The notes beneath the pieces are model-generated. The model saw only the letters and a program-made list of their open reading frames with translations. It was not told where the DNA came from and ran no database searches. Below, in pieces: positions 170 through 46,802 of a stretch of DNA of 64,000 bases; position 1 is the stretch's first letter, and every line of letters starts with the position of its first letter. The stretch comes from Takakia lepidozioides (lineage: Eukaryota; Plantae; Bryophyta): assembly GCA_030704615.1 (NCBI GenBank), contig CM060734.1:41292001-41356000 (forward strand), in the 5' to 3' direction. The position numbers were made by a program, and so were the translations under genes.

Positions 170-1849
170 CACAGGATGTTCGTCCCTCCGTCGGCAGACT
201 GTCTACTTCTGAGGACATGACATCTTCCGCCCATGCTGCAAACGTGGATCGACAACCAAGAAAGTGTGGGGGTGAGCACGCCCCCCGATGCGCGGGTCAG
301 TTCTACGCATGCGACCCACGAAGCTGCAAAGACAGGTCCAGCAAGTGTAAACAAACCTGCTGACCAGCCTCTGTTGCGAAGTAGGGCGGCAGCGCTGCGT
401 TTTCTCTCTCTATCCAGCCCGCCACAGCTGTCCCTGCTTCCCAGGGGAGAGGCAAAGCCAAGAAGCGGACTGTCGTGGACCATGCTGAGGAGGTCGAGGA
501 GGGTCCGAGTACCAAGAGACCGGCGAAGAAAAAGTCTGGCGTCTTTATGAACAAGAACCGCAAGCTGGCCTTGGACATGGACAAAGATGTGGGTCGTTTC
601 CTGGAGCAGCACAGGTGAGTACTGTGCTCAGTCTCCTCGTCTGTCTTTGTCGTTAAGTGCTTTGCGCTCTGTTGTGGTCAGTCTGCACGTATTTCATCAT
701 TGTCTGTTGTGGTTAGTCTTGTCAGTCTGATGAATTGTTCAGCCTGTAGAGTGTTTGGTACCATGTTGACGTCAGTCTGTTCAGTACATGAGGCTTCCCG
801 AAGGATGGTCTGCTCTGTGCAGGATGGGTGCTCGGTTTGGCAAAGCACATGCTCTGCACGTGAAGGCGGGTAATTCCATGCTGATGTTTTTTGAAGGGGA
901 CCCACGGTTTGAATGCGGACTGTCGCCGGATGACATAAAGGCGGTCCAGAAGGTTGAGTCGGAGTGCACAGATAGACTCCTGAGCTGTGGTGTCGATTCT
1001 ATGAGAAGTCGGTTGAGGCTGCGTTCACCAACACTATTGTTGTTTCTTCCAACGTCGACGTGGACGGTGTTGAAGTCATTGGGGGTGGGGCAACATGAAA
1101 GCCTTCTGGGTCTTGAAAGGTTGCCTCAGCACTGAACGACTGGGCAAGGACTTGAAAGAGTGCGATTTCATTTTGGTGCCAATTGGGGACGAGTAAGAAC
1201 TCTTCTGAGTCTGCTGAGACTGTCTCCTGAGTCATAGTCTGGTTTCGCAGTGTCGTCTTGACTCTGAGCGATTAAGTTGACCTCTGTATTTGTGCAGTGG
1301 ACTGGGTTTGAAGATTGAGTCTGCTGAGTGCTGAGTCTGCTGAGTGGTCGGTCTGCTGAGTGTCAGTCTGCTGAGTCTGCCCATCATGATTGTGCAATGA
1401 CGCCATGTTGTTTGATACCATTGCAGGGGCACTGGAGTGTTTGTATCATCGACCTCCGCAAGGGCTGTTACACTCACCTGAACTCTATCAGGGACTTGCA
1501 TAAATGTCCCTTTGTTCTAGGGTGGATTCGGAAGCTTCATGCGCAGTGCTTAGGGTACTCGATGGACTCACCAGAGTGGCATGAGATTGTCCAAGCATTT
1601 CAGTTCCACGCGCCTGATGTGCCCCAGCAACCATTCAGCTGGGAGTGTGGCTTTTACGTCATGTCATTCATTCAAGTGTTTTATGAGTGGGTAAAAGTCA
1701 GAGCAAATGTCTCCAAGACTGCAAAGCCAGAGAGAGGAACACCTTTCACGAAGGACTGGTTTACTTTCAAGTTTGCACTTGGGCAGCGAATGCAGTGTGC
1801 CCAGTATATCGTGCGGGGGTTGGACAATGTAGAGAAACTGCTCTCATGA
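170..1849 (+). CDS. ULP1-like C48 cysteine protease (SUMO-protease family) carried by the MULE; spliced, frameshifted, 5' end uncertain
   Basis: Exon pieces read LKECDFILVPIG (~1150-1190), then GHWSVCII...HLNS...VPQQPFSWECGFYV (1427-1660): catalytic His, oxyanion Gln and Cys of peptidase C48. GT donors at ~615 and ~1192, AG acceptor at 1425-1426. Confidence 0.75.
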
Positions 1850-2514
1850 GTATGATGTACTTGTCCTGTGAAGTCTATGTACCGAAATAAAAAATGCGAG
1901 TCTTTTCGCAGTGGTGATGAGCACTTTTGTGTACTGTGGGTGCTGTTTTGTAATGTTGTCACTAAACTCAATGGACACAATGGTGTCAATTTTTCCATGC
2001 ACTGTGCACCCGAGTCTGCTGAGCTTGAATGTGCGAGCAGTACGCTGCCGAGGCTAGGACTGCTGGGTCTGGTACCTAGTCTGGGAGGCACCATGTCCAT
2101 GAGTCCGCTGGGACGCTGGATTGGCATAAGTTGCAGGGATGAGGTGGAAGTGTGGTGAGCAGACTTTTGGAGTGGGCAGCAGACTGACCAGCAGACTGGC
2201 TTACTGGCGCTCGCAGTCTGTTGACTGTGACTCTGTTGGGAGACTGTGCGTGAGTCCGTTGGGAGACTATGCTTGGGAGACTGTGTGGGAGTCAGTTGGA
2301 CTGGAGGAGTCCGTTGGGAGACTGTGCATTAGTCCATTGCGGACTTGTATTTCAGAAAGGGACAATGCTACCAGAAGAATTGCAGACTTATATTGTCTTC
2401 TTCGTGACACCTGAAACAGAATTGCAGTACCTACTTTGTCTCTTTTCGAGGAATTGCAGACTTATTGTCTACACCTACACGTGAAACCTTGTCTCTTTTC
2501 GAGGCATTGCAGAC

Positions 2515-5416
2515 TTATATTGTCTTCTTCGTGACATCTACACGACCTGAAACCTTGCGAATTTTCGAGTATATATGTGCTGCAGGTGCAGGTGCAGACA
2601 CCCTCTTGCTGGTTCTCCGCAAAACCCTAGGCCGGGTTTTCCAGGCCTCCACGAAATCTCGTCTCCTTTTCAGAGACATGTTGTTGTTGTCGTTCAGAGG
2701 ACGGAAAGCCTTCGCTGCCGCAGGGTGCAACATTCCAGCCGCACTTTTCGCCAGGATATCAACGAGCTGCCCTCTGCACATATGAAGAGCAGATCGGGCA
2801 TGTGCCTCCAGGTATTTGTCATCACCTACAATGCGAAGTATGTCCGCGAATTCTTGTTCCAATGAGGCTGAGACCTCCAGAGGTGCCTCGTCGTAGGGGA
2901 AGTCGTCCGGAGGATGTCTTTCCATGAACTGATTGGATTCGTCGTTGCCGCCGGCACCATTGCCCAAGAGCAAGTTAGGTAATCCTCCATGAATGGTTCC
3001 CAGCGCCGTGCCACAAGCGCGCACAAGGAGGCCATCCTGCAGGTCAGGGTGAAGCATCTTCAGGACACGGACCTGATGCTTGCATAAGTTTCCCTTCATT
3101 GCCCATGGGCACGTGCAACAACCCCAATCGCAATCAGGATTGTAAACAATGTATGTTGTGCCGGGGTGGTTGCTGCTGAGAACGTAGGCTGGTTCACCAG
3201 GACCCAAGGGAAGAGTAACACTCTCAGCAGGAATGTCTCGTGCCGCAAGTATAGAACTGGATATGTACTTTTCGTGTTTGTCATTTCTTATGAACCCGTG
3301 GGTCTTCAAATGGATTGCGTACCAGTAGTGTGTTAGCACACGGCCAGTGAGTTCCCATATAAGCCAGTCCACTCTACGACCACTCATCTTGCCTTTCCCC
3401 ATGGCAAGTCTTGCCTTCAGATTTCCATGGTATGCCTCAATGCTTGCGTTTGTGTCTTGGCTCGCATGAGGGACATGGCGGGCTGCTGTACACCACATTG
3501 CTATTTTGGGCTTCCAGTACTGTTCGATATAGTCAAGAAATTCATGTCCTTTCGGGTATTTTGACCTCATACGACGGATTCTCCTTGCAACCCACCGAAG
3601 CGCTCTTTTCTCGTTGCGTGGTCCCCCTCTACAGTACATGAGGTCTCCCATATCCTTCAACAAGTTTACAGCGGTCACCGGATCCTTCGTTTTCTTGCAT
3701 GATTGCTTCACCCATGCCTTGCGGACATGCCAAAGGCAGAGGAAAATGAGTACTCCTTCAAAAACAATTCTGCACAACACACATGGTACACATTAGAGTC
3801 TTGGGATCGGACTGCAATGGTGGACTGCCGGAGTGGACTGTAACAGCGACTGTATCAGCGGGCAGAGCCACTGGACTCGCCCAGTGGACAGTACAATGCC
3901 ATGACGTTGATGTGCTGGAATAACCCCATTGGACTTCCCATTGGACTTCCCTAGCTAGGACTGGGGCAGACTGCATCAGCGGACTGCCCCGGACTGCACT
4001 TGCCACTGCCGACTTGGCGGACGGGGGACTGCTGAGTGGACTTGGCAGCGGTGCCGAGCGGACTTGCCGGGACTGCCAGCGACTTGCAGGGGACTGATGA
4101 CCGGACTTGACAGCGGACTACCAGTGGATTTGCCCAGCGAACTGCCATCGGGTTTCGCCACAGGAGTCTGCCAGTGGACTGTAGCAATGGACTGCTGCAG
4201 TGGACCTCGACAATGGACCGGTGTTGTGGACCAACAGACTTACCGAATAGCGTTGATTTCTGCTTCGGCATCGTCCACAATGAAGGCATTGGGTCGCCAG
4301 CTCGGCAAATCTGCGAGGAGTGAATCGCGCAAGGCTCTCATCCACGGAACCAGGTCTCTTGTCCGATTCCTCGCGGATAGATATAGGCAACTGGTATACC
4401 GTTCAACCACTCGTCGAAGACCATCAACGTACAATGGAACTGTTGGAATGCACAATGTAAGATGGTCAGAGCATGCAAATTCCGCTCAGTTCTGCACGAG
4501 AAGACTTCATAAGAGTGATGAGGTCTGTAGCGGTTCACAATGGGTCTGCCTCTCGGTCTTCCGCAACGTACACAACCCTAAACATACAGAAAGGGTCAGC
4601 ACACCAAATATTATGTGAATGTTGCATGGTACTATGCTATCATGCTCGTACAAGTCCATGGAATCGTTCGAATAGTACCTTGTCATGATTTGTCCCAAAG
4701 GTTGCATCACATGCAACGATACGGTCATGTCCTAGTTCCAGCATTCGTCGTTTCTGCCACGGAGTCTGTATGCCAATAGTGAATGTCAAATCTCCATCAA
4801 AATGCTCGAATGTTGGCTCTAATTTCTCCTCTTGATAGAAAAAAACGGACGCAGGATTCTGGTCTCTCCACATGCGCACACTCTCTGCATCATCGGCGTG
4901 CTTTTTGAAGGTTTGCCACGCACGTTTCTCGGCAAGTTGCGAACATCTTGCTCCAACAAGAAATCATCGCGGGTCCATGCATCGCCCAAGCCGGTGTTGT
5001 TCATCACGTGCTCTTTATGCTCCATCATGATTTGGGCGACCGACAGGCCTCGGCACAAACACTCGACGACCCAGGCTTTCAATTCCTCGCTAATGTGTGG
5101 TGCATAGGCGTGGCGGGTGTTCCTGAACTCTGCGGACTTCCCATGCGAGGGTTTCCCTTGCGCATCTGTATGCTCCATGTTGTTGTAGTACGTGAGGACA
5201 CAGATGTCAGGGGCGAGATAGCATTGCTGGACCTTGAAACAGCATTGGCAACCACGTTTGTAAGACTCTCCATACTCCGACTTCTTTCTCCTTGGGCCTT
5301 TATGAGGGCAAGATGTTCCAGCACCCACAAGAGGTCCTCCACGCTTCTGTTTTGGATCCTTCACTATTGCCTTGTTGGTGCGCTTGTCATCAGGATGTCG
5401 TGCGCATACATATCGC
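2515..5416 (-). CDS. MULE/SWIM transposase (exons ~5416-4679, 4439-4244, 3769-2515; probable first exon ~16374-16222 beyond the Gypsy insertion)
   Basis: KRGCQCCF...H WRKY/GCM-like motif; catalytic CDATF, FIVDD, CLWH (CxxH) and TNASIEAYH; SWIM finger CTCPWAMKGNLCKH; GT-AG introns; a few single-base frameshifts. Confidence 0.9.
3790..4240. repeat. Degenerate GGACTG-type short tandem repeats in a MULE intron (related arrays at 1205-1380, 2160-2345, 16580-16725)
   Basis: Repeated ggactgccg/ggacttgcc/gagtctgctga units are directly visible. Confidence 0.75.
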
Positions 5417-5835
5417 TACACAACTACATCGCTGTCCAAAACCACACAACACATGTGCACACCACACACTAGTATACCACTAGTCCACTAGTCACTAGTC
5501 CAACCACTAGGCTACAACTAGTCAGTCACTAGGCTGCCACTACGCTGCCCACTATGGCAGTCACTAGTCCACACAATCGCCCCCCTAGCTGGTGCTTAGG
5601 TCCCTCTAAGTCCAGGTAGCCACAAGATGTGATAGTGACCATAGCCTCACTAAGTCCTCCACCACTATCCCTACTACACTCAAACTCGATAGATCAAGAG
5701 GCCGGGTGCAAGAGTTGCCCCATCGTTAGTCGCCGTCTTGCAACCTGTGAACTTGAGCTTGGGATCTCATGTATTGACTCCTATGAGCTTGGCCTCCCAT
5801 GTCTTGTTAGCTGCCTCCAGTCATGTCCACTGCCA

Positions 5836-5978
5836 CTATCCCAAGCAGTGTGGACACAACCAATCTCCGTCAGGAACCTTCTCAAGAGGTGGTGTCAAGC
5901 ATCCCATATGCCAACCCCTTGAGCACGATCACACACCAGCATGGTGGCTGCCCCTTTGGCAGACCCACAGAGCATGCA
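5836..5978 (-). CDS. PHD zinc finger (C4HC3) at the C-terminus of the integrase/Pol
   Basis: Manual translation [47 protein letters not shown] with one 1-nt frameshift at ~5926. TAG stop at 5836-5838. Absent from the ORF track. Confidence 0.9.
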
Positions 5979-7150
5979 CCTCAAACCTGCAGGTACCACT
6001 GCCAAGTTTGGGTCAACTTGCCATCGACATTGGGAAGGTGACATGGCGCACAATTACGCACATGGTCTTCCAAGTCATGCCATCCCGACCCTCTAAGATC
6101 AGGACCCTGAGGGCAACACCTCTCGAACCCTCAGAATAACACGCCCTGCAGTAACATCCAGAGTCGTAGGAGCAGTCTGCTGCAAATAAACATAGTCACC
6201 AGGGCTAAACCTCCGAACCCCAGGACGATATCCTCACCACGTATAGTGGCATACCTCAACGTATCACGGTGCTGTGCAATGGCAAGGTTCTCAAAAGCCA
6301 TGGGCATGACTTTCTTGAACAACTCTGCACGCTGATCACATGCACGTACCACACGTCCGGATCGTCAAGGTTAAGGACTTGAGCAGTGTCCCTACGAATG
6401 GCTGCAGGCAAATCCGGCTCTCGGCCAAAGAGAAGGAAATATGGTGAGAAGGAGGCAAGTGATGCTTGTTTGCTGAACCTGTAGCCCATGGCTAACCAAG
6501 GAACCTGAAGATCCCAATCTCCTAGGTGTCCCTTCTGCAAGCCATACTTGCGCAAACCCCTCTTCACCGTCTGAACAACTCTCTCTGCTAAGCCATCGGC
6601 CTCAGGATGATCCCCGAGAAGTGGTGCGGTGGTCTATCAAGGCTTTATCACAAAGCCTGAAACTCCCCCAAGAACTCTCTCCCTTGGTCCGTGAGTACCT
6701 CAGCTGGAGCACCAAATCGGCTAAGCACACGATCCAAGAATGCATACGCAGCCCCCTCACTAGCCTTGTCAGGCAATGGAACCAACTCAATCCACTTGGA
6801 GAAGTGCTCCACCATCACCAACACATATCTGTGGTGGCGCATAGTCAGTGGCAACGGTCCTGCGAAGTCAAGACTCCACCTGTAGCCCAATCCCATGATG
6901 ATAGGTAAAGGATGCAACTGTGGTGTAGGGGCGTTGAATGAAGCACGCACCCTGTCACACACCATGCACCTAGCCACAAACTGTTGCACCTCTGTATGCA
7001 TACCACGCCACCAATACTGCCCCTGCAGTAAACTGTGAGTGCGTCGCACTCCAAAATGCCCCAACTCCTCATGGGCATGCCGCACTAACCGTGCACGCTG
7101 TGTGGGGTGAGGCACAATCCTCACCCGACCATCCTCCCACACTCGAAGTA
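5979..7150 (-). CDS. Retrotransposon DDE integrase
   Basis: HHCC finger HAHEELGH...CMVC; D (WSLDFAGP), D (VLTDQGREF), E (DGLAERVVQTVK); C-terminal SPYFLLFGREP. Several 1-nt frameshifts. Confidence 0.92.
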
Positions 7151-7469
7151 GGTGTATCCCCTCCCACTTGAACCTCTTGGCTCGTTGCAGGATCCGATCC
7201 CTCTCCCCAGTCACAGTGGCTGCCGTGTCTCCCGTGCGGAGGTAGTCCAACACAGCCGAATCCTCATGTATATCTCTGGCACCACCTAGCTCATCACTAG
7301 CCTCAGGGTCCTCAGACACTCCGTCTACAGTCATCCCTGTTGTAGGTCCAATCTGACCTCCCGATGCCAAGATACACAAAAATGCAGATGCGTGCCATCC
7401 CGGCACCATCTCCTCGTCCGTCTCACCATGCCACCGAGCTCCAGTGTCATCCTGCTGGCTCATGCATGG

Positions 7470-8800
7470 ATTGCGACTCAATCCATCCGCATCCCGATTG
7501 ACCAAACCCGGTCGATGCACAACCTGAAAGTCATACTCCTGGAGTATAAGTGCCCACCGTGCAAGCTTCCCCGTAAGCTTGTCTGACTCCATCAACCACT
7601 TGAGTGGCTGGTGATCCGTGACAAGGGGGAAAAGATTGCCGTATAGATAGCACCTGAAGTGTGCCACGGCCCACACTGCAGCTAAGCACTCTCCCTCATA
7701 TGAGCTGTACTTAGCCTCTGCAGCGTTGTTCGAGCGGCTAGCGTAAGCCACTACGAAACTCTCTTCCCTCATCATCCACCTGTGTGAGCACCGCTCCAAG
7801 CCCCAGCATGCTCCAATCCGTATGCAGCTGAAAGGGACGCCCCCTGATAGGTCGTCTCAGATAGGCGCCGAGGTCAACCTCGCCTTGAGCTCTTGAAAAG
7901 CTCGTTCCTGCTCATCTTCCCACTGCCACTCCTGGTCCACCTTGGTCAGCTTGGTTAGAGCCTTTGCAATGGTACTAAATCCCTTGACAAACCGTCTATA
8001 ATAGTTTGCCAACCCCATGAAAGCTCGAACTCGGCTCACATCCGTGGGGCGTGGAATTTGTGCAATGGCCTCTACCTTAGTCTGCTGTACCCCCAATCCT
8101 CCAGGATATATCATGTGACCCAGATACTCAATCTGGTTGTGGAAAAACTTGCACTTCCCCGGATGCAACTTCAATCCGTGCGCTCTCAAGCGCTCCAATA
8201 CCACCTGAAGGTGTCTCTCATGCTCCTCCATCGTAACACTAAAGATGATGATGTCATCTATGTAGCACCGAGCAAAGTCCACCCCTGCTAGAATCCTATC
8301 CATGACTCTCTGAAACTCTGCAGGAGCATTCTTAAGCCCAAATGTAAGAACCGCCACTGATATAGGCAATCCTTGCCGTGCTCATTGATCCCCCAGAATG
8401 CCGTCTTCTGCTTGTCCGCCTCCTTGATTGGCAACTGGTGATATCCGGATCGTAAATCCAAAGTGCTAAAGGCCTTAGCATGCCCGATGGCATCAAAGAT
8501 CTCCTCTGGTGTTGGCATGGCATACTTATCGGACTTGGTCTGACGATTTACAGGCCGGTAATCACCGCACATACGTCTCTCCGTCCAATTGCCATAGACA
8601 TCCTCTTGCTGGCATCACTGTGGCTGAAGCATACTCTCCACCAGAGAGCTCCACCAAACCTGCCTCCCAGAGATCTTGAGTCCTCATCTGAATCAAAGAC
8701 CTCTCCATGTCACTGTATCTATAGGGTCTCCGAAAGATTGGCGTGTCAGTGGCCAACTCAATACGGATCTCTTGACCCTTCAGTGCTCCCAAGTCCTTCA
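7470..8800 (-). CDS. Reverse transcriptase and RNase H
   Basis: MCGDYRPVN, FSTLDLRSGYHQ, FGLKNAPAEFQ, YIDD (8264-8253), EYLGH; RNase H VVAYASR...YEGECLA...VTDHQPL...DADGLSR. Confidence 0.95.
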
Positions 8801-9259
8801 AACTGAAGGCAAAGCAATTCCTGTAAGCCCTCAGGAACCGCCGTATACGTCGTCTCTCTCCTCCGGTGACAATGGGTCCAATGTCAGGCTCCCAATTGTC
8901 CTCCGTAACTACAACCTTAAGTCCAGTGGGCTTAGAGGTAGAGGACGCGTCCCGTGGTTGCTATGCTGCAACCTCTTGAGCAGTACTCCCTACCTGCTCA
9001 GTCAATGACAAAGCCTCATCCTGCCCCATCATCTCATCCTTGAGGACCTCCTCAACCCGAGAAGAATCCCCAACCTCATCCATCACAGCCGCCTTGGCTG
9101 CCAACTCCCTCTGAACCTCGAGCACCTCCCACGTGTGCCATGGATGCATGCACCCGTGGTCCTCATATGCTCGCCCCCACTCACTGCCTGTACCGTCTCG
9201 GTAGGCAGAGAGACCATTGAGGGAAGTGTATTCCGCACTCTGCGTTGCTCAGCAGAGCC

Positions 9260-10215
9260 AAGCTGATAATCCAGGTCAAGCAATTGAGATCCATTGCTTG
9301 CCCCAACACTTGACGACGTGATGCCTCAGAAAGAGACGACACCGCCGTGGTACCAGTGGTAAAACCCATTGCCCGCTCACGCTCGTCAGCATTAGGCTCC
9401 ACTAACTGCTGCAACTGAGCATCCCACAGGAGGCCAGGTCCACTATCCCGGAAAGCATGCGATCTGGGAAGCTGAGCAGTGTAGGTAATGCTGCTCGTGG
9501 TTGACCCACCTTGTTGACCACTGCCAAAGGCGAACGGTCATCGTGTCTCACACGTTGAGACTGCCTCCCTGTGTCCAGAATGTTATCCACTGTGAGATGT
9601 GCTGGCCGCTGCACCCCATCAAATGCACGCTTGAGCAGTGCGGGTGGCATCAGTTAGTCCACCATAGCCGTGGACGATGAGCCCGTGACCCCACTGTAGC
9701 TGCATCTAGCAACACTGCTGACCCAAGCCACGACCGGACTTGATGCACACTGGCCATCACCCTGGCCCGAGAATCGCCCATCAGTGGCACATTCTCCAAG
9801 ATGTATGCTGGAGATACAGCTTGATGAAGCTGCAAGTGGCGCAAAACCCGCACCATCTCCCAAAACAGACCCGACCTCGAGTCTCGCAATCCATTGCCAT
9901 GCCCGGCTGATGAATGCCCTTGGCAGGGCCAACCTGCCACTACCAGATCAATGGAGCCAACCCGCTCCAAATCCTGCGCCCCAGCAACGAAATGTCTGCT
10001 GGCAAGGCCTGCTGATATCCACGAATTGCAGACACCGACAACAACTCAGGGTACCGCTGCACCAACTGAGCAACATGGCGAAGTGAAACGCGTCGTGCAG
10101 TCTCATCCCTCTCCACATACAGGTAACGCCGAACTCGTACACCTGCTGTAACACAGCAGCCAATCCGGTGCTGATCCCGCCAAACAAGTCCAGAAGACAA
10201 ATGCCTTCATCCGGA
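9260..10215 (-). CDS. C5 DNA cytosine methyltransferase domain, DNMT3-like, embedded in Pol between protease and RT
   Basis: Motif I LLDLFGGISTG; II RYLYVERDETA; III LPADI; IV DLVVAGWPCQGHS (catalytic Cys codon 9925-9923); V GLRDSRSGLFWE; VI YILENV; VII-VIII LLDAATVGSRAHRPRLWWTN; IX ERERAMGF; X SRRQVLGQAM. Split over five ORF fragments by 1-nt frameshifts. Confidence 0.93.
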
Positions 10216-10599
10216 GACTGCCACACAATAGGTGTGGTGTCCAATGGAGACAATTGAGTGGTCCTGGTGCAATCCCCACACTCTCCTCCTCTCCTGACGG
10301 TACAAAAGCCTCCACCCAGGCTTGTTGCACCCGTCGATCAGCATCCCGCTGCAAATCCTTGCTCGTGCCCCACAATGGAGTCTGAGCAACCATGGTAGGC
10401 AACTCCGCCATACCATACATGTCATCCTGCTCTCCCGGAGGTGGTACATCCTCTGAATGAGCATTGCCCTCAAGCAACTCTCTAGGCCAACTCACTGCCG
10501 CTGTGAATGCTGCTAGTGTCGGCATCTTGCCTCGCTGGGCAACCGCAACTCCTCCTATGAACGTCACAGGGAGCTGCACACGCCGGCCCTCCCCTGACT

Positions 10600-10930
10600 G
10601 CCATGCAGGCCTATAGGAAGCTGACTCCTCCCAAAAATCCAGGGTGAAGCCCATGGGGTACAACACTGCCCCACCAACCAGGACATCGTATGAGACTGCG
10701 TCTGTCACAATGGCCTTGGCTCGCATCACTGAGCCATCTGTAGGGTGATCCGGCCGTAGTCTGATAGCCAACTCATGCCGTGTCATGCCCCGAGCCTGCT
10801 CCGATCCTCCCAGAGACGTCTGTATCTGGAAAGGACAAGGCTCCATATCCGCCTCCGTGAGGCCCAAGCCTGCAATAGCAGCTCTGCCCAGCATCATGGC
10901 TGAGCTCCCGAGTCCAACAAGACTCGCAGT
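10600..10930 (-). CDS. Retropepsin aspartic protease
   Basis: RVLLDSGAQP (Asp codon 10914-10912) read in an alternative frame, followed by ...YDVLVGGAVL. Confidence 0.85.
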
Positions 10931-11681
10931 GGCCGGTACCTCTTGCCTGCCGGTCCACTCAAACAGAAAATGCCATCCTGGTTGTCTAACATGACAACTC
11001 CAGGTGTCACCATGGGCGCTCAATGGCTGGCCTAGCTGGCAGCTCCATCAACCTGGCAGCTGCAGCTTGCCATGGCGCCGCCGTGGCAGTCTTGACCCTC
11101 AAATCCGAGGATCCCTCCGGCACTACACCTCCCACTATCTCCGCAGAAGATGAAGTAACCTCCCACTCTCACAGAGTGTAGCTGCCAGCCTGAACACCTC
11201 AGCTGGTCTTACCCCCGGCGTCGCAATCATGGTAGCCCGAGAACAATGGAGCCTGGCACACAGATGTGGCCGCTCCTAGCAGCACACTAGCTGCCGTAGC
11301 CTTGGCAACACTAGGTAGTGGTGCTACCCGTGTAGCTCTCCCCAATGGCATAGTAACCTCCGCCTCGGTAACAGTCGGGCGAGAACTAGGTGCCATGGAT
11401 GGCGTCGACACTGTCTCCGCCAATGTGAATGACTGAGGAAGCCTAGCCTGACGGCTTGCCTCCCCACGCTGTGGATCCAACTCCACCTCTGCACCTCGTG
11501 GCTCAGGAACTCGTGCTGCTCCTCGAGTCACGGCTGCAGCAGACTCCACCTGCACTAGTGGTAGTGCTGCTCCACACATGAATCCCATGCCTCCCATATC
11601 TCCTCCCTCAGGAGCAGGAGGTGGACCATCCGGCCTTAGAGCCGGTACCACCTGAGCTGTAGCCATGGCAGCGAGCCTGCT

Positions 11682-13116
11682 CTAGCTGCTGAAGCCGGTT
11701 GGCCATGCCTTGGTCAACACCCTGACCTCCGCGTCCTTGGCCACGTTGAGCTTGCCCTTGGCACCTCGTGGCTGGCCACCTCGTCCTCTCTGGGCTGCTC
11801 CACCTCGCCCCCGGCCACCATTGTTCCCTTGGAACTGGCCTGGGCGCAACTCAGGATGCAAACCATAACACTGGGCCTCTCCATGCCCGTGCTTGCCACA
11901 ATGCCCACACTGCAACTGTGCAGGCTGTGCATGTGCCGGCCCTTTGCCTCCCTCTGGGACAATCCTTCTTGACATGGGGTCCTCCACATGTCCAGCACAC
12001 CACATCCGCCCGTTGTTGGCCAGCAAATGAAGGGAGAGACCCCTGCATCTGAGGTCCTCTCTGCCCTTCCCTGAGCTTCACCTGAGCCCCCTTGTTGCCT
12101 TGAGCACGTTGAGGTAGTGGTTGGCTAGGAGCACCACTACCCCGTGGTGTCTCCTTAGCAAATCCCACCATGACCACTCGTTCCTCCACCATGTTGAGCT
12201 CTATCCGCTCTGCCAGCAAAAACACATTTGCTAAGGTGGGTTGGGCCGCTTGTAGGAGAGTTGCATCCCGCACCCTTCTCCTCAGCTCCTTGTCCAATAT
12301 CCCATACCAGAATTGGACTGCCTGAGCTTCCGTAACCCCTTGGGTTACATTTATCAAGCGCCTCATGCGAGTGAAAGCCTCCCTCAAGCTCTCGGTCGGC
12401 TTCCGTTGGAACTCTTGCAAGCTCCGCAACTTCTCTGTCCTCACCCCTTGGTAGTTCCCTCTCAACTCTTCGAAGAACTCCACAACAGGGTTGAAGGCAG
12501 GCACGGGTGCTAGTGCTGGTGCGGTAGTGGCTTGGGTGGACGTCGTAGCTACTGTACCACCAGTCCCACTGCTACTTGCTGAAGCTGCCGGGTGCAGCGG
12601 CAGGTGTAGCCACTGCCCTCGTGGCTCTAGTGCCCCTAGTGATGGAGACATAGTCGGGTGACCAGTACATCCTCCACTCCTCGATCTCAACCTCATGCCC
12701 CCGCCTGAACTCATGGTAATCCATAGGCGGCCCCTCAAGGTGCTGAAACAGCCCTTTCCATGCCATGAAAGGCGTAAATAGTTGTGGATTGCGCATTTGC
12801 TGCAAATCACACCAACTATCAAACTCTTGGATAAAATCATCCAACTCAATGGTGCCCACCGCCCCAGAGTACCTTCGTGGCCCCTTGGTAGCTCCATACA
12901 TCTCCTCCATTGTGTCCCACAACAATGGCAAAGAAACAACTTGCACCGCCGGTATGAGCCCTCCTGATTCACAATCCGAATCAGAACCTTCCGTGGAAGA
13001 CACAGGAGGTGAAGGTGGCCTAAACCGCACACCTCGTCTCGTGTACCCACTAGTATCGCTAGTGCTCGAACCGGCACTGTCCCAGCAACTAGTGGCACCT
13101 CCGTGTTGACACTCAA
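11682..13116 (-). CDS. Gag with two zinc knuckles
   Basis: Capsid-like LDDFIQEFDSWC...FQRKPTESLREAFTRM...FWYGI; CCHC knuckles CWTCGGPHVKKDC and CGHCGKHGHGEAQC; RGG-rich segment. Confidence 0.85.
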
Positions 13117-13369
13117 CCGGTCATGAACATGTCCCTAACCCCCTCTCCACAAGGTAACCGGGTAGAGAACCTGTTGCGGCTTATGGTTTGGAATACTAAG
13201 TTCCTAACATAGCCTACACCTGAACTTGCATGACCATGGGAATATCATGAAGATACTCCTCAAACCGCCCTCCACGAGCTTCAAAATTCGGCCTTCCAGA
13301 CCACATGCCAGTCCTTAGTCCACCAGTGCCTCCACGAGTCAGCACAGGCCATCCACAGGTCAACACGGG

Positions 13370-14240
13370 CCACCACAGACCAGCACAGGGGTCACAACAG
13401 TTTTCACAGGGACATTTTTTCATGTTCTGTTTCCTTCACATTCCCACAGGGCCTTCATCACATCACACATTCCTCACATTCACAGCCTTCTCACAGCCCT
13501 CACAGTTCTTTTTTGCCTGTCACAGCAGCCCGTCACAGCCCCCTCTGTTTTTTCACACAGGCCTGCACAGTCAGCACAGCCTGTCTTCCACAGGCAGCCA
13601 GGCCTCACACACATCACAGTAACAGCCTGTCACAGCCCTCACAGCCCACATTGTCACAGCCCTGTCACATCACAGCCCCTCACAGCCTCAAAGGCCTCCT
13701 GTCACAGCCCCTCACAGCCCCACAGCCCCCCTCAGGCACGGCCTGTCACAGCAGCCCCTCACACACAGCACAGCCGTGCCATGGTCACAGCCTTCACAGC
13801 CTGTCATTCTGCCTGTGCCCGTCACAGCCCGGGCACGGCCTGTCACAGCCCCACAGTTGCCTGTCACAGTCACAAAGGCCTCAGGCATCACATCACAGCC
13901 CGTCACGCCCCAAAGGCCACACGGCCCACAGCCCCTCACATCACAGCCCATGTCACACACCCGTCACAGCCCCCCTCACAGTCACAGCCCCTCACATTGC
14001 CTGTCACAACACACAGCCTCTCACACACAGCCCGTCACAGCCCCCACAGGCCTCAGGCACAGGTCACACACAGCCCGTCACAGCCCCAAAGGCCACTGGG
14101 CACAGCCTGTCACAGCCTGACACATCACAGCCCCACAGGGCGCACACAGCAGCCCATCACAGCCTTCAGGCACGGCCTGTCACACAGCCCGTCACAACAC
14201 CACAGCCCGTCACACTTGCCACAGCCTGTCACAGCCCACA
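13370..14240. repeat. Degenerate tandem array of TCACAGCC/(C/T)GTCACA units in the retroelement leader
   Basis: Dozens of cacagccc/cctgtcaca/cccgtcaca units across ~870 bp. Confidence 0.9.
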
Positions 14241-14659
14241 CATGGCCGCTCTGGCAGTTTAGCCATTTCTCCAAGGGGTTTAGCCACGCCAAGCTAGGGT
14301 TTGTGTCTCTTGGACTCTAGGCTTCTTTCCACCGAGCTATGGTGGCTGTGAGGAAATCAGCAAGGTATCCTTGCTCTTTCGGCTCCCACACACCACCATA
14401 GTAGCCCTAAGCCATGAGGTGGTTGCCACAAACCAAGCCTTCTTTCTCACTTAGGCGCCACTAAACTCAATGGCAAACAACCAAGCCCTGCTGGTTCCCA
14501 GCCCTTGTGAGCACTCATTCAAGCACTCCCCTCATTGGCCATAGCATCTGTCTTAGAGCCTATTCCAGCCCTCTACACCTGTTGCTTCAAGAGTTGCGCT
14601 CCCTTCAAGCTTGAAGTTGAAACCCCAACTCACATAGGCCCTACAAGTGCTGTTCTTTC

Positions 14660-15245
14660 ACTCCAAGTGGAAACCAGCCCTAGACCTTCCGTTCTAGCTC
14701 TCTAAGGCTTGAAAACAAGAGCCTCAATGGGCTGAAGGCATGCTCCACACATGCCCCACTCTCACCATAAGAGAATCAGCTCCTTTGCTTCATTTCTTGC
14801 ACCCACAAACCTGATAATACAAGCTTCAGCAGGCTGAAAGCATGCTCTACATGCCCTACAGGGAAACCAGCCCCTTCCTTCCTTTTCTTGCACTCCCACC
14901 TAAAAGTGCAAGCCTTCACCAGGCTGATAGCATGCTCCACACATACATTGCCCTCACATAAGGGAAGTCAGCCCTTCCCTCTTCCTTGCTTGCCCTCCAA
15001 GCTTGAAGATGGAAGCTTCAATGAGCTGAATACATGCTCCACACATGCAACCTCTTCACACAGAGATATCAGCCCCCTATCTTGGCTCCTTGGCTCCTTG
15101 ATGCTCTCTATGACAAGACTAAGCACTCCATAGCCTTTGCCAAGCTCCTGAAACCCTAAGGCTTACATTTCCAGCCACAAGACACTTCTCTTGTGGTGCA
15201 AGAACTCTTCTTCCAAGCTCTGAAACCCTAGGTGCACATTCCATG
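14660..15245. repeat. Dispersed ~90-100 bp-period sub-repeats in the retroelement leader
   Basis: CATGCTC(C/T)ACA x4 (~14740, 14840, 14930, 15033); GAAACCAGCCC x2; CCAAGCTC(C)TGAAACCCTA x2 (~15140, 15212). Confidence 0.7.
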
Positions 15246-17653
15246 GCCTTGCCGCACCTCTTAGCTCCTGTTCCAGCCCTGCTCTTGCCATGACAAGAGC
15301 CCTCTCAATGCTGAAGCTCGAGATTGAAACCCAATCTCACCATACTCCACAAAGTGCACTGATTTGCCCCAAGCAAAATCAGCCCTTTCGCTTGGTCTTG
15401 CAATCCTTCACACAATGAAAGCTCGCATTCCCAAGTCCAGTTCTCAGCTTTGCCACCAAAGCCACTATAACCTGCTCTTGACTGGTCCTCTTCCCAATCG
15501 TGCTTGCTCATGCATGTACACAATCTGGAACCATCAAGGTGCTCTGGAATTACCTGCAGCATGGTGCTTTCATCTGAAGCTGAAGATCGAATGCCAAGGT
15601 CTACCACCTCGTAACCCACATCGCCTCCGCTTCTAACAACAAGAGCTCCACGGTGCTCCTTGCATAACAACTTGGTTTCTCTCATTCTCAAGCAAAAACC
15701 ACAAGTGCTACAACTAACTCGTATCTGGCACTCACAGATACGAGCTGATCTTTCTCGAGTGATAAAGAAGAAGAATACAAGCACAAGCTCATGCGAGCTC
15801 ACAAAGCTGAAGCATAAACTCATGCATATATAACCTCATCACTCAAATACAAGTCAAGCCAAGTGCACCCCACGCCATGGGGAATCCACACTACGGCGCC
15901 ATAGCTAGGCGCGGTGAGGCTCAACTCGAGAAAGATGAGCCTCCCGCGCTTGCCGTGAAGATAACCACTCCAGGGCCTAAATCTGCCTTGACCCCCTGGA
16001 TTGACACTTGGCCAATCCCAAATGTCAATATGTAAAAGATAGCTATTTCCTAGCTAGTTTCACACTAGTGGTAAAATAACTTGACAAGGACCGTAACAGC
16101 ATTGATACCTAGACAGAAAATTCTAAAATCGATATCCAACGACTTGAGGAAGCATAAAATCAAAGAACTCGTGAAACAAAAAATGGCAACAGACATGCAA
16201 TGAAACGTCAACATTCACTCGCACACCCATAAACCCATATTGCGTCTCACTCTTCCAATGGAGATCCTTCCTGTTGAAGGGTCCTGGTTTTGCTGTTTGC
16301 AAACATTGTCGAAGAGGCCGTATAAGCGGGCTTTCCGTGATCAGTATATCATCGGGTTTTGCTTCCACGTCCATGCCCTATACAGTACAAAGGACACGCT
16401 TCTGAACATGCAAGAAACGCGCCGCAGTACAAGACACAATCGACAACGTGCCATGAGAACAGTGCGCACGCTCGGGGCTGCTGGCAAGTGGCAGGCGGCA
16501 GGGATGCAAGTTTGAATTGCAGCCCTAAAAATGGAGGGTTCGGATGGGTTATGGGAATGGACGGTGGCGATCATGTGCCGTCAGCGGACTGGATGGCAGG
16601 GACTGGCCAGCGGAGTGGCGGGCAGGACTGCTGGGCAGCACTGGCGGGCAGACTGGCGGACTGGCAGACTGCTGGGCAGCGGACTGGCAGACTGGAGGGC
16701 AGCGGACTCGTGGGCGGGGGACTGGCCGCGCGGCGGACGGGGGCGCGGGTGCGGTTGCTGCAGCCGCGCCCGCGGCTGGGCGACCGTGCGCAGCGGCGGG
16801 CGGGGCGCTGGGAGCCGGGCATCCGTGCGCGGGGCCCACCGGCCACATTGCACTTGCCCATTGAAGACCCTATTATCTTAAAATGAGAGGCGACTCAAAT
16901 ACCCAATCCTTCAATGAACAAGAGTTGTTTTTGGGCTGCTTCCTCTCTTTCTTGTTACATGCTTTCCTTTGTTCCATAAGGTCTTTCAGCTCTCGGCGGA
17001 AGTTACATCAATTCAAATGTTTCGCTTAGAACTTTCTTACTGTGTGCAGTTGTTTCCCCATCAAATCATTTGAGGAATCACATTTGTCATTTTTCTTCCA
17101 TGCATTCTCATCAGCTGCAGCACCATTGGGTGCAACTTTACATTCATGATTAAAAGCTGCTGCGCCTTGCTTGTCACCTCTCTATCGTTTCGGCACTTTC
17201 AGCTACTTCGGCCGTTGTTCTTCGTTCTTTCATAACTGGAGTAGTCTGTCACAGGAAGGTGATTATGCAGACTCCGTGACTTTGAAATTGGGACGTGTAC
17301 TCTGTCCCAAACATGACCGAATTTATGAAGCAAGTGGAACTTTTAATGAGTTTCAACTGTATTCTCAAAATTAACATATGTTACACTTGAAGATGCGTAG
17401 AATTAGGAAACTTTGTGCGCCCAAGAAAGATCAGGACGGAGACCTCACTGTTGCGAAGCAAAATATGACTTCAGCACGAAGTCCACTTATCTGGCCCATC
17501 ACTGATTCGAGTTCTTGACTAAGTATTGCCTTTGAAAGCAGTCACAAACATGGGCAATACAAACAGTCACTGTGTACAGAACTTCCATCCTCGGGAGAGA
17601 GTCTGCATAATATGATCAACTTCCTTGCTACCCAACAGAAGTAGAAATTGAGC

Positions 17654-19581
17654 TCATGCCATGAAGCCTGACACAGCTTCTGCTGATTTTTCGAGCGTAT
17701 CGATACTCCTCTCCAGGCGGGCTCGCTTCTGTGCGAGATGCGAGTCTTCTTGCATCAGCTCCTGCATTTTGACACTCTCGCCGGACCATATCCTGGCCAT
17801 CATCTCGTCATGGATATCTTGGACAATAGCTTTCTCCAAAGCATACCGTATCTCCAGAGGAATTTCATCAGCAAGGCGCTTTTGAACTACTTTCCAATAA
17901 GCAGCCAAGCTTGCTTTCATCCTCCACGCACCACAATACTCACGGTTCTCACAGTCTTCCTCCAACTTCAGAATTTCTCCGTTGTCGATTTCGACTTCTC
18001 CATTGTAGTATCCACTTGTGTTGGCAGTTTCCAAAGCTGAATACATCCTGTTCAAAGTGTCCATGTAGTAATGGTTTGTGGTGAACACAATTGATTTCTC
18101 TTTCTTCAGCATCCTCTCAACAAAATCAAGTGACCTCTTCTTGGTTTGCTCCAAAATGAGAAGAGTAGACCGCTTGAAGTAGGATCCCATCTGGGGATAT
18201 CCTTCACTGCATGTCTTGTCCACAGTTTGCACCACATCAGCTGCATATGCATGTGTATCGTACACCAACTGCTTACAGCATGCAGTGATGTTATCGACCT
18301 GCCTCCCAACAAGTAGGTGCAGGACAGGGTGGGATAAGAAATCCGGAAGACCCACACCTTTGTACTCCGACAGAAGGTGGCTTATTTCTTTTGTGCGCTC
18401 TGTAGCCATCAAACCTGACCCTGACTTTTGAAGATCATCGGCAAACGTCTGAAACTTTTCATGCATCCGAGCAGTGTAATGCATCTCATTCGCATCAGGA
18501 AAGCTTTCGAAATGTCCTTCACGTACCAGTTCGGCCAATATTTTGGTCCGCGAATTCTGCATTTGGGCAAACACCAGTCCTGCCTCCGCGACATCTTTCA
18601 TCCCTCGAGGTAAACTCTCGTACTCTTGACGACGACGGTAGAGTGCATCGTTGATCTGTTTGATTATTTTGGGTAGGAGTCAGCCGCTTTGCCAGCATTG
18701 GAATACCGACCATATCCTTGCTCAGTCTGGAGAGAACTGGGTGATTATCAGATTTTGCTCTCTCACACGAGCCTCCTCATGGGACTCATTGTCATCAGTC
18801 CGATTTCGAACACATCCCAAACCAATGTGCACCGCATCTGTGGTGACTTTCTCATACAGACCTTCTGGTGCTCGGTCCACTTTTGTCACAACCGCGAGGG
18901 TGCGTCTCCCTTCTTTGTCCGCCTGCTGTGACATTCGAATCGACTCGCAAGTGGGGAAGTCGACGGTTGCTGAGAGGACATTCAAAATTATGGTCTCAGT
19001 GGGGGAGATGAACTTCTGTATCATGGCTGAAATTTGCTCGTAGATGTCGTCAGGCTGCCCATGGACCGGAACTCTTGTGATTCCAGGCAGATCGATCAGG
19101 GTTAAGTCTGGAGCGTTGGGTTTTTGTACGTACAACGATATGGGTGCATCACGGACATCCTTTCTCGTCCCTGCAAGCGTATCGGTCGCGGCATTGATGG
19201 CCTCTTCAATCAATTCCTCACAGGGAATCTCCTTTTTCACATCTCCGTACTGAATATTGATATATGCTTCGCTATCGGATTTGCAGTTCTGAAGCCTGAG
19301 AATGAGAGGCACACGCGTTGCGATTCCTTGACCTCTGGGCAAGCTAATACCGGCCAGTGACTCCAGAACACTTGATTTCCCACTGGATTGATCGCCCACA
19401 ACAACGATCGTGGGCAGTTGGATACCTTCCTCCATCACCCCGAAGTTGCGAAGCTGGTCGATCAAGTCGAGCATTGGTCGGACCTGTTGATTGAAACTTG
19501 TTTCAAGTGCAGAATGTGCAGGATTCCCCACTACAATCTGCCCTTTAACTTATTATCTGAGGTAGAGTCGCACTCTATCAT
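17654..19581 (-). pseudogene. Dynamin-related protein, Mx-like/DRP4 class, intronless; probably pseudogenised
   Basis: G1 GDQSSGKSS, G2 ATRVP, G3 DLPG, G4 TKVD, middle domain and GED (YWKVVQKRLADEIP). Lesions: frameshift near the 5' end (~19545), GLG-CVRNR lacking the usual YV, and frameshifting multi-base deletions at ~18750 and ~18678. Confidence 0.8.
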
Positions 19582-25100: not shown

Positions 25101-28100
25101 TGGAAGAAAGGGCAATGTTACGGGTTGCGAGAGTCGCATGTGAAAAGGTGTTAAGTTGGCTCCAACACACGCCCACTGAGATTCGGACAACACCAGGGTC
25201 TCTCAGTGGGTTTCTTTGTTGTACAGTTCCACATGTCTCCACACTCTCATCAGTTCATAATAGATTGCTTCTTTCTCCTTCTTTCTTCCTCTTCTCTCTC
25301 GGCTAATGATTTCTTTTCTCTTTCTTTTGTTCTCTCTTCAGTACAGTTCCTTCATTCTTTTTACTTTATCATGTATTGCACATGCATGTGAAAGTCTACA
25401 CAACCTCAAGACTTTGACAGACAGTTATCAAGGAAATCTGCAGGCAAGTATCTGACAGGTTCCTTCCAAAATAACTGAATAGTGTGACATTACTCGAAAG
25501 CCCCACAAGGGGATTTGGATCTTTTGTGCCCTTTCACCAAAAAACGTTAGCCAGGCAAAACTTTATGCCTAACAAGTTAGTGGGTGTTCACATTTGACCT
25601 GGTAAGTATGAAACTTGACATGGCTTGACTATACTGAATGCATGGATGACAGCCTATCTTAAGGGTCAAATGTGTACCAGAGGTGGTGAGGCCAGCATCA
25701 TAAGCATCTGCAAGACCCTCGCTCAAATGCTCTACTGATCGCAATGTCAGGGCTGGACCATGCACCTGCCATCCATTACAGAAAAATATCCATTTCCATG
25801 AGTCGTACTCATATGTTGTTCTCACAAGGACAAAGACACATGACTTCAGTACTTCCACGTCTCGAATCTAGATTCACGAAGAGAAAGAATGGTATGTCCA
25901 ATATACCTGGAACAAGTCAACCTTCTCAAGACCGAGCCGTTCCAAGCTTTGTTTGAGAGACTTGATGGCCTCCTTGCGGCAATTGAAGTGCCAGGGCAGT
26001 GGAGTGTATTTTGTTGCTATTACTACATTTTGCCTTTGCTCCGGACTCAGCTTCTTCAAAAACTTACCGACCAAACGCTCCGATTCACCTATCCATCACA
26101 ACAACCATTTCTCCCAATTTGCATAAGAAAAAGCTTTGGGTTCTTTAAGGGCACAGCAAACAGATTGCGACATGCATGGGAGGCCCAGAGGTCCAGGAGA
26201 CACAGTAGAGCAAAGAGAGAGAGAGATGTACTCATAAGACATTGTTTGCCGCAGGCTTGTGGGCTATAGACCCCGTGCCCAGTATGTGCGAACGAGAGAG
26301 AGAGAGAGAATGTACTCATAAGACATTGTTTGCCGTAGCCTTGTGGCAATTGACCCAGAGCTCAGATTGAGCGGAACACAAAGGGACAGAAACTACCTTT
26401 GTCAGGGGCTGACGCCAGTAGTATGACCTACCTTGGAACAGACTAGTATTACTCCCAGTTTTCCAGATATCCTCTAGAAATCCCTTCACACAAGCATCCA
26501 TCTGCTGTGTGTGGTTTGCCCAATAACTAGGCCCCAAAAGGGCCTGGGCTTTTAACTCAGCCTCGAGACTTTCAAAGATGGTAAACAGAGGTTCAGGCAC
26601 AATTCCCTTGATGGATATGAAGAGGGCGTCTCTTTCATGAGAGTAGCCAGGACAATGAATCAGAAAAGGAATATTGCAATCCCTCTCTCTCTGCATCTGT
26701 TTGCTGTTCAAAGGTAGGCTTCCCGCCCTGAGTTTAAATTTAAGTCTAGTGCCGAGGGTGGGAAAACCCTTGAAATCATCCATGATGGCCTCTCCCATCT
26801 CACAGACTAGAAACAAGTTCAGGGAAATTTCCTGCCTAAATTCATTTTTCATGAGAGAGAGAGAGGGGGGGCAAGCAACTATCCTCAGTTTTATTTATTT
26901 TACTACAGTGTGTCAAACTTCAGTATCAAATCAACCGAGTTGCCTGGATGGTGGCAAGGCACAACTTCTACACATAATGAAAAGGCAACAAACCGAAAGA
27001 AGGGAGCTTCAAATGTCTTTAACGAGACACTTTTTAAGCCTTGCTTGCTCTAGCCTTGTAGACTACACACCTACACTACACTGTCTAGATATGCAAACAG
27101 GGGACAGTGAAAAGAAAAGAGAAATGAAAGGGTACTTTCCAACGTCTGTGGCAAGCTCCAGGAGCTTATGGGGCAAGAGAAAGCAGGAAACGAAAAAGAG
27201 AGAGGGGCCCTCCACAAGCAGCCCAAAAAAATGACATGAGATGAATGGTACTTCATAACATCCGCGGAAAGGTCAGACAAGAGAAAGCATGAAACAAGAA
27301 AAGGAGAGGGGCACTCCACAAGCAGCCCAATAACAACTATTGTCCAAGGGATTGACTAAGAATCAATGCCTCATGCAGACATGACATTTGATTTCACTGC
27401 TGTATCCACCGCAAGCAGGCAGTCCTCATGTTGCAGGTTGTCCCACCTGCCAGTCTCATTCTGCAGACTATGGGAGCCCACCCTAAACCTCCCCACTGCC
27501 CTTAGAAGAGAGGAGATAGAGCTGCAGACAGCTGGCAATTGGGCCACAAGATTCTATCATCACGAAGATCTCCCCATAGAACTGCAGTTTTGTTGTAAGA
27601 TTGGCTGGAAAGAAAGAAATGAATTGAATGATACTTTACAACATCCACAGGAAGCTCAAAGAGCTTATGGCACAAGAGGAAGAAAGAAACAAGAAAGATA
27701 GAGGGGCCACAAACAAAGATAAAAAAGAAAGAGAAACTCATAATGTCCAGAGACTTGTGTCCGAAGACTCACATACCTTTTCCATAAACAGCAGCTGTGT
27801 CAATTAGCGTGACCCCCTGCTCCAAAGACTTGTTGAAGGCCTCTTCTGCAGCAGCCTCATTGAAAGCCGCATCTCCATACCCCCACAACTGTCTGCCCCA
27901 CCCAACAATCCTGCTCAGTCTGAACTGATTCGTAGTGGAATGATCACAACAACTGCATCTCCCTACTACTCCCATGCCATGTCCTCACATTGCCTGCTAC
28001 AGATATTTGCAATGGAGCTAAGATTTGAATCCAACTTGTACAGAAGGTTCGCGTTTCCTGACCCCCGTAATTCCTTACTCCATTAACTCTCTCCATTAAT

Positions 28101-46700: not shown

Positions 46701-46802
46701 CTTGGTGACACCACCGCCGAGAGACGTCTGCATCACTTGAGTCACGTCTGCGGTGGGATCATAAGTAAAAGTATCATCTTTCTTCCAGACTCTTTGCCGC
46801 AT
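37759..46802 (-). CDS. CHASE-domain hybrid histidine kinase (cytokinin receptor, CHK/AHK2-4 family)
   Basis: TM + MCEGRARML (46802-46314); CHASE exons ([12 protein letters not shown]; [11 protein letters not shown]; [11 protein letters not shown]); TM exon 43101-42914; His[17 protein letters not shown]; HATPase [22 protein letters not shown]; receiver [18 protein letters not shown]; stop at 37759. Start codon and one small exon between 40400 and 38680 are uncertain. Confidence 0.93.
39655..39720 (-). mobile_element. ~70 bp 3'-end copy of the (TC)n-associated LINE
   Basis: gttccgcccaaactggcacagcgtctatggccacaagtctagggcaaacaaggtctcatgagtaca, preceded by a TC-rich run. Confidence 0.65.
43190..43874 (+). 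mobile_element. 5'-truncated LINE copy with 17 bp target-site duplication in a CHK intron
   Basis: TSD TCTCTCACTGTCCCCGA at 43173-43189 and 43875-43891; [21 protein letters not shown]; ORF ends GHKATANVL*. Confidence 0.85.

Follow-up and report, generated by a model that had tools for sequence, protein, structure and literature searches.

A land-plant family of Gypsy-type retrotransposons with split repeats carries a DNMT3-like methyltransferase closed off from reverse transcriptase by a conserved stop codon

Why should a transposon carry an enzyme of the very class that silences transposons? The question dates from the 2018 report of KnitGypsy-Dnmt3, a Gypsy-type element of Klebsormidium nitens with a DNMT3-like domain (de Mendoza et al. 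2018, PMC5890265). The hosts described in that report are hard to work with, and the Klebsormidium Gypsy domain produced no methylation in yeast, where DNMT3A and the SymbioDIRS-Dnmt3 domain methylated CG; the authors held the result inconclusive, DNMT3B having failed as well. The same question is raised by a 64,000-nt stretch of DNA from Takakia lepidozioides (the window, to which all coordinates refer), in which an initial annotation made from the letters alone had placed a DNMT3-like cytosine methyltransferase inside the Pol of a Gypsy-type element. The parts of this element are as follows.

5396..16086, minus strand: whole element, 10,691 bp, starting with TGTC and ending with GACA; the short A...B form of a split-repeat, Gypsy-type retrotransposon
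5392..5395, no strand: left copy of the 4-bp target-site duplication AGGA, from the sequence
16087..16090, no strand: right copy of the 4-bp target-site duplication AGGA, from the sequence
15760..16086, minus strand: repeat A, the 5' terminus, about 327 bp (host-contig joints 5576 to 15760 and 16086 to 5396)
13458..15074, minus strand: 5' leader, with short tandem repeats at 13458-14247 and repeats of about 102 bp at 14669-15074
11775..13060, minus strand: Gag with a CCHC knuckle, broken (tblastn with relatives P0087, P0011 and P0339)
10556..11010, minus strand: aspartic protease, broken by a frame shift (LLDSGAQP motif at 10897-10920)
9253..10229, minus strand: DNMT3-like C5 cytosine methyltransferase domain with four frame breaks (PF00145, E 1.5e-13)
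8955..8963, minus strand: in-frame stop with its context, TAG CAA CCA, closing Gag-protease-DNMT; conserved, a predicted readthrough signal
7533..8912, minus strand: reverse transcriptase (RT) and RNase H, broken (RVT_1, E 4.8e-22 and 2.6e-6; RT_RNaseH, E 2.1e-25)
6373..7106, minus strand: integrase, H2C2 zinc domain and rve core, broken (Integrase_H2C2, E 2.7e-16; rve, E 7.2e-11)
5839..5980, minus strand: PHD finger downstream of the integrase, split by a frame shift (PF00628, E 4.8e-7 on 5839-5928)
5577..5586, minus strand: polypurine-tract-like word just before repeat B, present too in relatives L050 and L005
5396..5576, minus strand: repeat B, the 3' terminus, 181 bp, its last 39 nt matching the B ends of relatives

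The limits of the element are marked by an empty-site joint from 5391 to 16087 and by loose ends at 5396 among contigs of public runs mapped on 4600-17600. Its terminal TG...CA, short target-site duplication, domain order PR-RT-RH-INT and polypurine tract are hallmarks of the Gypsy type. Some parts are recognized more readily in relatives than in the window: the Retrotrans_gag match of the window Gag falls under the cut-off (E 0.0037), the protease piece has no Pfam match where relative P0339 matches Asp_protease_2, and the PHD finger is unbroken in relatives L023 and L060. Repeat A, about 335 bp long in relatives, holds a TATA-like word near 15830, found by eye, and is likely the promoter. 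Frame breaks affect gag, protease, RT and integrase as well as the methyltransferase, and the window copy of the element is dead. One contig from a run guessed to be RNA spans 8880-9333.

Within the methyltransferase domain, the motifs LDLFGGISTG, YVERD, GWPCQG, ILENV, LLDAATV, SRAHRPRLWWTN, ERERAMGF and RRQVLGQAMD follow one another on the minus strand from 10229 to 9253, and are given below the numbers of the C5-methyltransferase motifs to which we take them to correspond. The catalytic motifs PC, EN and RxR are present, and the open piece 9653-10045 matches PF00145 with E 1.5e-13 and 51 bits, against a cut-off of 22; the canonical, non-permuted motif order read in the initial annotation thus holds, and the profile comparison that it proposed came out positive. 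The reading frame shifts near 10150, 9980, 9653 and 9465, yet the pieces abut when aligned to intact relatives, and no intron is needed. With the LLDSGAQP motif upstream and RT, RNase H and integrase downstream, the domain lies, as had been proposed, intronless between protease and RT on the same strand.

The affinity of the domain was assessed by sequence and fold on intact relatives that are 76% identical to the window piece. In a profile search of the PDB, the best 29 of 52 sequences were DNMT3A/B/C (E 1.7e-11 to 1.4e-6), and a Marchantia relative matched 25 PDB sequences at E <=0.001, all of them DNMT3A/B/C. The permuted plant enzymes (4onj and DRM2 entries) rank next and match only positions 44-170 of the profile with their C-terminal half, as is expected of permuted enzymes; HhaI was reached at E 0.007. 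The predicted model of the intact relative P0001, which shares 76% of its residues with the window piece, has a pLDDT of 92.9 and matches DNMT3A with E 1e-18, a target TM of 0.83 and 22% identity; an earlier model built from a shallow alignment reached a pLDDT of 44.8 and was not used. On these searches and this model, the domain appears closest to DNMT3A/B in both sequence and fold, which bears out the earlier assignment to a DNMT3-like rather than a permuted DRM type. The ESM Atlas returned generic PF00145 clusters only. No close viral source was seen in the 4 of 64 parts scanned, where matches to viral contigs were distant (best E 4e-20, 26% identity).

In its DNMT3-type catalytic domain and normal motif order the enzyme resembles the host proteins PpDNMT3a/b (Yaari et al. 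2019, PMC6453930). The host DNMT3 of non-flowering streptophytes, however, carries a C-terminal DUF3444 (PMC6453930), whereas here the domain is intronless, fused to Gag-protease and, in a Pfam scan of P0011, P0087 and L005, without a DUF3444 match; the stand-alone host DNMT3 gene of non-flowering plants was rejected on the latter ground. The Klebsormidium host DNMT3 gene is multi-exonic, in contrast to the intronless domain of the element.

The methyltransferase is shared by relatives in other land plants. The window piece finds 45 proteins, including entries named as Marchantia polymorpha, Sphagnum troendelagicum and Calypogeia fissa, and a metagenome scan, in which the best 80 of 155 relatives were kept, shows the order gag-PR-DNMT-RT-RH-INT wherever contigs reach, barring nested insertions and deletions. 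All but two of the 80 loci (78/80) could be compared with the Sphagnum-named protein P0007, with a median match of 81%. In the host itself, summed contig depth, which is not copy number, amounts in run X3 to 0.96-1.14 million over the DNMT and 1.04-1.14 million over RT and RNase H, against 93 over a neighbouring host gene: the element is a repeated, very abundant family in the host, and its DNMT is as common as its RT. Host contigs carry indel variants at two of the four methyltransferase breaks, which means that at least those two are not common to the whole family. By its presence across these loci, the DNMT is a fixed part of a large family.

These data also dispose of the suspicion that the window copy captured a host DNMT3 cDNA on a single occasion, or that the arrangement is an assembly artefact. 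The broken state of the window copy would suit such an origin, but the same domain order recurs in metagenome loci and named bryophyte proteins, depth in host contigs is even, DUF3444 is missing, and the DNMT and RT trees share their main split. Refuted by host-contig depth, metagenome order and the selection data given below, a one-off capture retains practically no chance of being correct, in keeping with the view taken in the initial annotation.

The placement inside Pol, on the other hand, has to be given up. An in-frame TAG at 8961-8963 separates DNMT from RT in the window, and a stop followed by CAA is found at the equivalent place in 51/58 loci, or 44/48 after removal of redundancy. Six Marchantia proteins and one Calypogeia protein terminate 97-99 residues past motif X, and across 3126 host contigs the stop has no listed variant that reaches 20%. 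Retention in 44/48 loci, the protein ends in Marchantia and Calypogeia and the lack of variants in host contigs together argue that the stop is not a product of decay.

How translation would pass this stop can be judged from its context. The window sequence A-TAG-CAA-CCA is an exact fit to UAG-CAR-YYA, the type I readthrough motif of tobamoviruses (PMC2754532, PMC3542737), while in most relatives the stop is followed by CAA CCC, which departs from the CAR-YYA consensus at one base, and then by ATG. An in-frame ATG is the third codon past the stop in 41/48 loci, and would also fit reinitiation; it is absent from the window and from L038, and the next Met of the window lies about 85 codons past the stop, within sequence common to relatives. 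The folds predicted 3' of the stop differ among the four sequences compared, and we propose no stimulator structure common to them. Under either readthrough or reinitiation the first frame comprises Gag, protease and DNMT, and the enzyme would therefore be made at the level of Gag; the conserved stop predicts an enzyme dose at capsid level. Such a dose is not needed everywhere, given that in some relatives the DNMT lies in the RT frame or between RNase H and integrase. In P0133 and P0338-P0341 a single frame without a stop runs through Gag-PR-DNMT-RT-RH-INT, which may be the Klebsormidium-type layout.

From this organization we propose the following course of events. Gag, protease and DNMT would be made from the first frame, and RT, RNase H, integrase and the PHD finger by occasional readthrough of the conserved stop. 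Fusion to Gag would carry the DNMT into the particle in amounts similar to those of Gag, and the protease would free it there. The freed enzyme would then meet double-stranded cDNA and methylate its cytosines before or at integration, CG being the most likely context by analogy with DNMT3A and SymbioDIRS-Dnmt3 in yeast, and the new copy would arrive marked like host DNA. We assign the whole of this chain, from first frame to methylated cDNA, a probability of roughly 0.55.

Conservation of the enzyme was examined in 50 non-redundant domains, drawn from the 61 rows left by a coverage filter. All 50 retain the catalytic Cys, 47/50 and 49/50 the Glu and Asn of motif VI, and 48/50 the Phe and Gly of motif I. 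The arginines of motif VIII are kept in only 30/50 and 33/50, and only 3/50 rows are free of stops; the few stop-free domains and the lost arginines indicate that most copies seen are dead. C to T loss in close copies amounts to 0.26 at CG, 0.31 at CHG and 0.06 at CHH, and we attribute the arginine losses to methylated CG and CHG that decayed once the copies had been inserted.

Selection on the domain is seen over longer distances. dN/dS for DNMT, a check proposed with the original description of the locus, is not near 1: 1225 pairs give 0.41, the close pairs among them 0.57 (RT 0.36) and 96 distant pairs 0.18; these 96 are not independent, and two diverged rows are probably involved in all of them. 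When the window is compared with five loci, the DNMT gives a pN of 0.16-0.21 with a pS of 0.75-0.79, which is saturated; pN in the same comparison is 0.12-0.15 for RT, 0.19-0.25 for Gag and 0.29-0.31 for the protease. As judged from these substitution patterns, the DNMT domain is under purifying selection, with a long-term conservation about equal to that of Gag.

The decay of copies bears on a reading with the same chemistry as cDNA methylation and the opposite purpose, in which methylation of the new copy by the element itself would bring on immediate silencing by MET1 and CMT and so reduce the cost that the element imposes on its host. This option was raised in PMC5890265, and the fastest decay at CG and CHG implies that copies end up methylated. 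Such decay is nevertheless what host silencing gives any plant transposon, and the family is very abundant in the host; we consider self-restraint of this kind quite unlikely.

Residue conservation bears on another reading, in which the domain methylates no DNA and owes its retention to the binding of DNA or RNA, to methylation of RNA, or to a role as decoy for host DNMT3. The inactivity of the Klebsormidium domain in yeast (PMC5890265) would agree with it, as would the spelling EC in place of PC at motif IV in 42/117 full-length domains. It is at odds, however, with a set of 59 diverse proteins in which Cys, Glu and Asp are invariant and each of the two motif VIII arginines shows a conservation of 90% or more, and with the retention of motif I, which binds SAM; a decoy acting as RNA does not fit synonymous sites that are saturated between lineages. 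We judge this reading very unlikely, and prefer that of an active enzyme carried to the cDNA inside the particle.

The ends of the element depart from those of a standard Gypsy-type retrotransposon. Self-comparison for terminal repeats revealed no LTR pair in the window, and relatives have split repeats, which excludes a canonical two-LTR element. Relatives L050 and L080 show the full arrangement A1-ORFs-B1-NN-A2-B2 and L005 and L014 part of it, with the junction CA-GC-TG, whereas the window copy has only one A and one B. Host contigs hold both types of junction, from 16086 to 5396 with two letters between, and from 5576 to 15760. Among 22 distinct 3' ends, 4 are long, 17 short (counting L066, a rearranged A2-B2) and 1 is cut by the end of its contig. 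The target-site duplication is an exact 4 nt in 6/9 loci with both ends, has one mismatch in 2/9 and two mismatches in 1/9, and a purine run lies just upstream of B1. No permuted form, with B ahead of the first A, turned up in 25 loci, nor was a TGG-led primer-binding site after A seen by eye in the window, L005 or L050. A tyrosine-recombinase element of the DIRS, PAT or Ngaro type is ruled out, as the pieces scanned by Pfam contain matches to the DDE-type Integrase_H2C2 and rve and none to a tyrosine recombinase.

DDE integrases, as in retroviruses, trim two bases from the ends of their DNA, and this offers a way in which the split repeats might work. The transcript would start in A1 and run through B1-A2, and the internal CA-GC-TG junction would template both cDNA ends plus the two extra bases that integrase trims. 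The short form could come about by recombination between B1 and B2 or by cutting at the junction; devoid of A2, a short A...B copy could not rebuild the promoter end. Annotation that relies on LTRs, of which the LTR-FINDER survey underlying REXdb (PMC6317226) is an example, would miss elements with split repeats.

When 1.84 billion representatives were searched with a profile, 281 proteins reached E <=1e-30, and we examined 159 (148 of the best 150 and 11 others), 24 of them with Pfam. In 80 of the 159 the DNMT lies after RNase H or before integrase, in 21 after Gag or protease or before RT; 57 comprise the domain only, and 1 is mixed. The RNase H-DNMT-integrase form includes proteins named as Haematococcus lacustris and Cymbomonas tetramitiformis, both chlorophytes. 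Within this chlorophyte sister group (P0042, P0257, P0300, P0312, P0334-P0337 and others) a PHD finger stands downstream, and some members add a G-patch or Tudor domain. Quick trees of element-borne domains, made without bootstrap, place the window with Marchantia and moss-like rows (SH-aLRT 99 for DNMT, 57 rows; 98 for RT, 35 rows), and the chlorophyte form, represented in the DNMT tree by 30 of its 71 rows, makes up one side of a branch in both. More distant Gypsy-type pieces occur at L043:14754-16592 and L017:163-2034, with integrases 46-56% identical and, in L043, a PHD finger; no methyltransferase was seen in the parts of these pieces that were examined.

The PHD finger bears on a different target of an active enzyme, namely host chromatin, which the DNMT would reach by entering the nucleus or by travelling with the PHD-bearing integrase, to methylate the insertion site or other loci. 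The finger follows integrase in both land-plant and chlorophyte forms, and has Gly where readers of H3K4me3 have their cage Trp, a feature of readers of unmethylated H3K4, which it may resemble in function; moreover, a Gag-level dose would exceed the need of one cDNA. Fusion to Gag, by contrast, places the DNMT in the particle beside the cDNA, Pfam found no nuclear-targeting or chromatin domain joined to the DNMT in P0087 and P0011, and the Klebsormidium methylome, as far as described, stays plant-like despite such elements. We regard a chromatin target as unlikely, and retain the cDNA as the expected substrate.

A wider evolutionary account can be offered tentatively, as a possibility that we would not yet favour. 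An old green-plant lineage, reaching from chlorophytes to liverworts and mosses, would combine DIRS-type split repeats with a DDE integrase, template both cDNA ends from one CA-GC-TG junction and carry a PHD chromatin reader; in land plants its DNMT3 would have moved ahead of a leaky stop, filling particles and delivering pre-methylated cDNA. If this were true, the epigenetic state of a transposon would be set by the transposon itself, before the host encounters it.

The relation to KnitGypsy-Dnmt3 is close. Both are Gypsy-type elements with an intronless, non-permuted DNMT3-like domain under purifying selection (PMC5890265), and the domain set of that element, Gag, PR, RT, RH and INT with an intronless DNMT3-like domain, is present in the family described here. 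Its repeats are DIRS-like as well (A1, ORFs, B, A2, B in the legend to Fig. 4c of PMC5890265), which ties the land-plant family to it. The two differ in host, here land plants and there Klebsormidium, and in frame structure: DNMT, RT and RNase H of KnitGypsy-Dnmt3 share one ORF according to the peer-review file of PMC5890265, whereas a conserved stop stands between them here. The passages of PMC5890265 compared here mention no PHD finger, target-site duplication length or two-base junction, though its figures and supplement may bear on the PHD finger and on domain position, and the species table has no Marchantia or Sphagnum row. No named Klebsormidium protein was among the relatives that our protein searches returned or that could be placed in the trees.

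SymbioDIRS-Dnmt3 of Symbiodinium, which methylates CG de novo in yeast, also has a DNMT3-like domain and split direct repeats, but in a DIRS order with tyrosine recombinase (PMC5890265), in contrast to the DDE integrase and 4-bp target-site duplication found here. The EpiLTRs of Cymbomonas and Euglena (bioRxiv 10.64898/2026.05.21.726589) are similarly of the Gypsy type with a cytosine methyltransferase and a chromatin reader; their DNMT, however, is sister to DNMT4, is accompanied by an adenine methyltransferase and a chromodomain, and lies at the 3' end of pol in Cymbomonas, where the present family has a DNMT3-like domain and a PHD finger.

The novelty of this kind of element had thus been overrated in the first description of the locus, as the same kind, DIRS-like repeats included, is in print for Klebsormidium (PMC5890265). 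What is new is that the DNMT ends the Gag-protease frame, closed by a conserved stop and CAA. New too are the PHD finger after integrase, the combination of split repeats A1-ORFs-B1-NN-A2-B2 with a DDE integrase, and the chlorophyte order RNase H-DNMT-integrase. Later papers (PMC12344493; bioRxiv 10.64898/2026.05.21.726589) still cite only PMC5890265 in the parts available, and a literature search that left most subscription papers and Repbase outside its reach turned up no description of the family in land plants, of its stop or of the chlorophyte form.

In Marchantia polymorpha, many Gag-protease-DNMT proteins of about 1280 aa are annotated under the label hypothetical, and through these the activity, sequence context and target of the enzyme become testable in a genetic model. 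Some of the DNMT3 genes counted in bryophyte genomes may be element-borne domains of this kind.

The surroundings of the element combine further mobile DNA with genes of plant type, such as those for a CRE1 receiver and an F-box kelch protein. The element is inserted in a Mutator-like transposon (1328-5391 and 16091-16900; SWIM finger, a weak match) that is itself repeated in the host, and whose opposite strand bears an Ulp1 protease frame at 1328-1849 (Peptidase_C48, E 8.4e-14). A non-LTR retrotransposon in a decayed state, its RT preceded by a C2H2-type zinc finger, lies at 33302-35954 on the plus strand, and an inverted pair of retroelement-like fragments, 85-88% alike and 16-17 kb apart, at 26328-26856 and 43301-43859. 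CpG is depleted across 1-64000 (0.28-0.84 of expected) and CHG is not (0.79-1.35); metagenome copies decay at both CG and CHG. A dynamin-family gene at 17654-19549 on the minus strand consists of two long frames with no evident introns, its nearest database proteins being 39-50% identical and its best named match, from Physcomitrium, 47%. Exons of a CRE1/AHK4-type cytokinin receptor extend over 37962-46880 on the minus strand (Receiver_CRE1, E 7.6e-16 at 37965-38720), the upstream exon at 46239-46880 being assigned by eye only, and an F-box kelch gene occupies a single frame at 51754-53079 on the plus strand.
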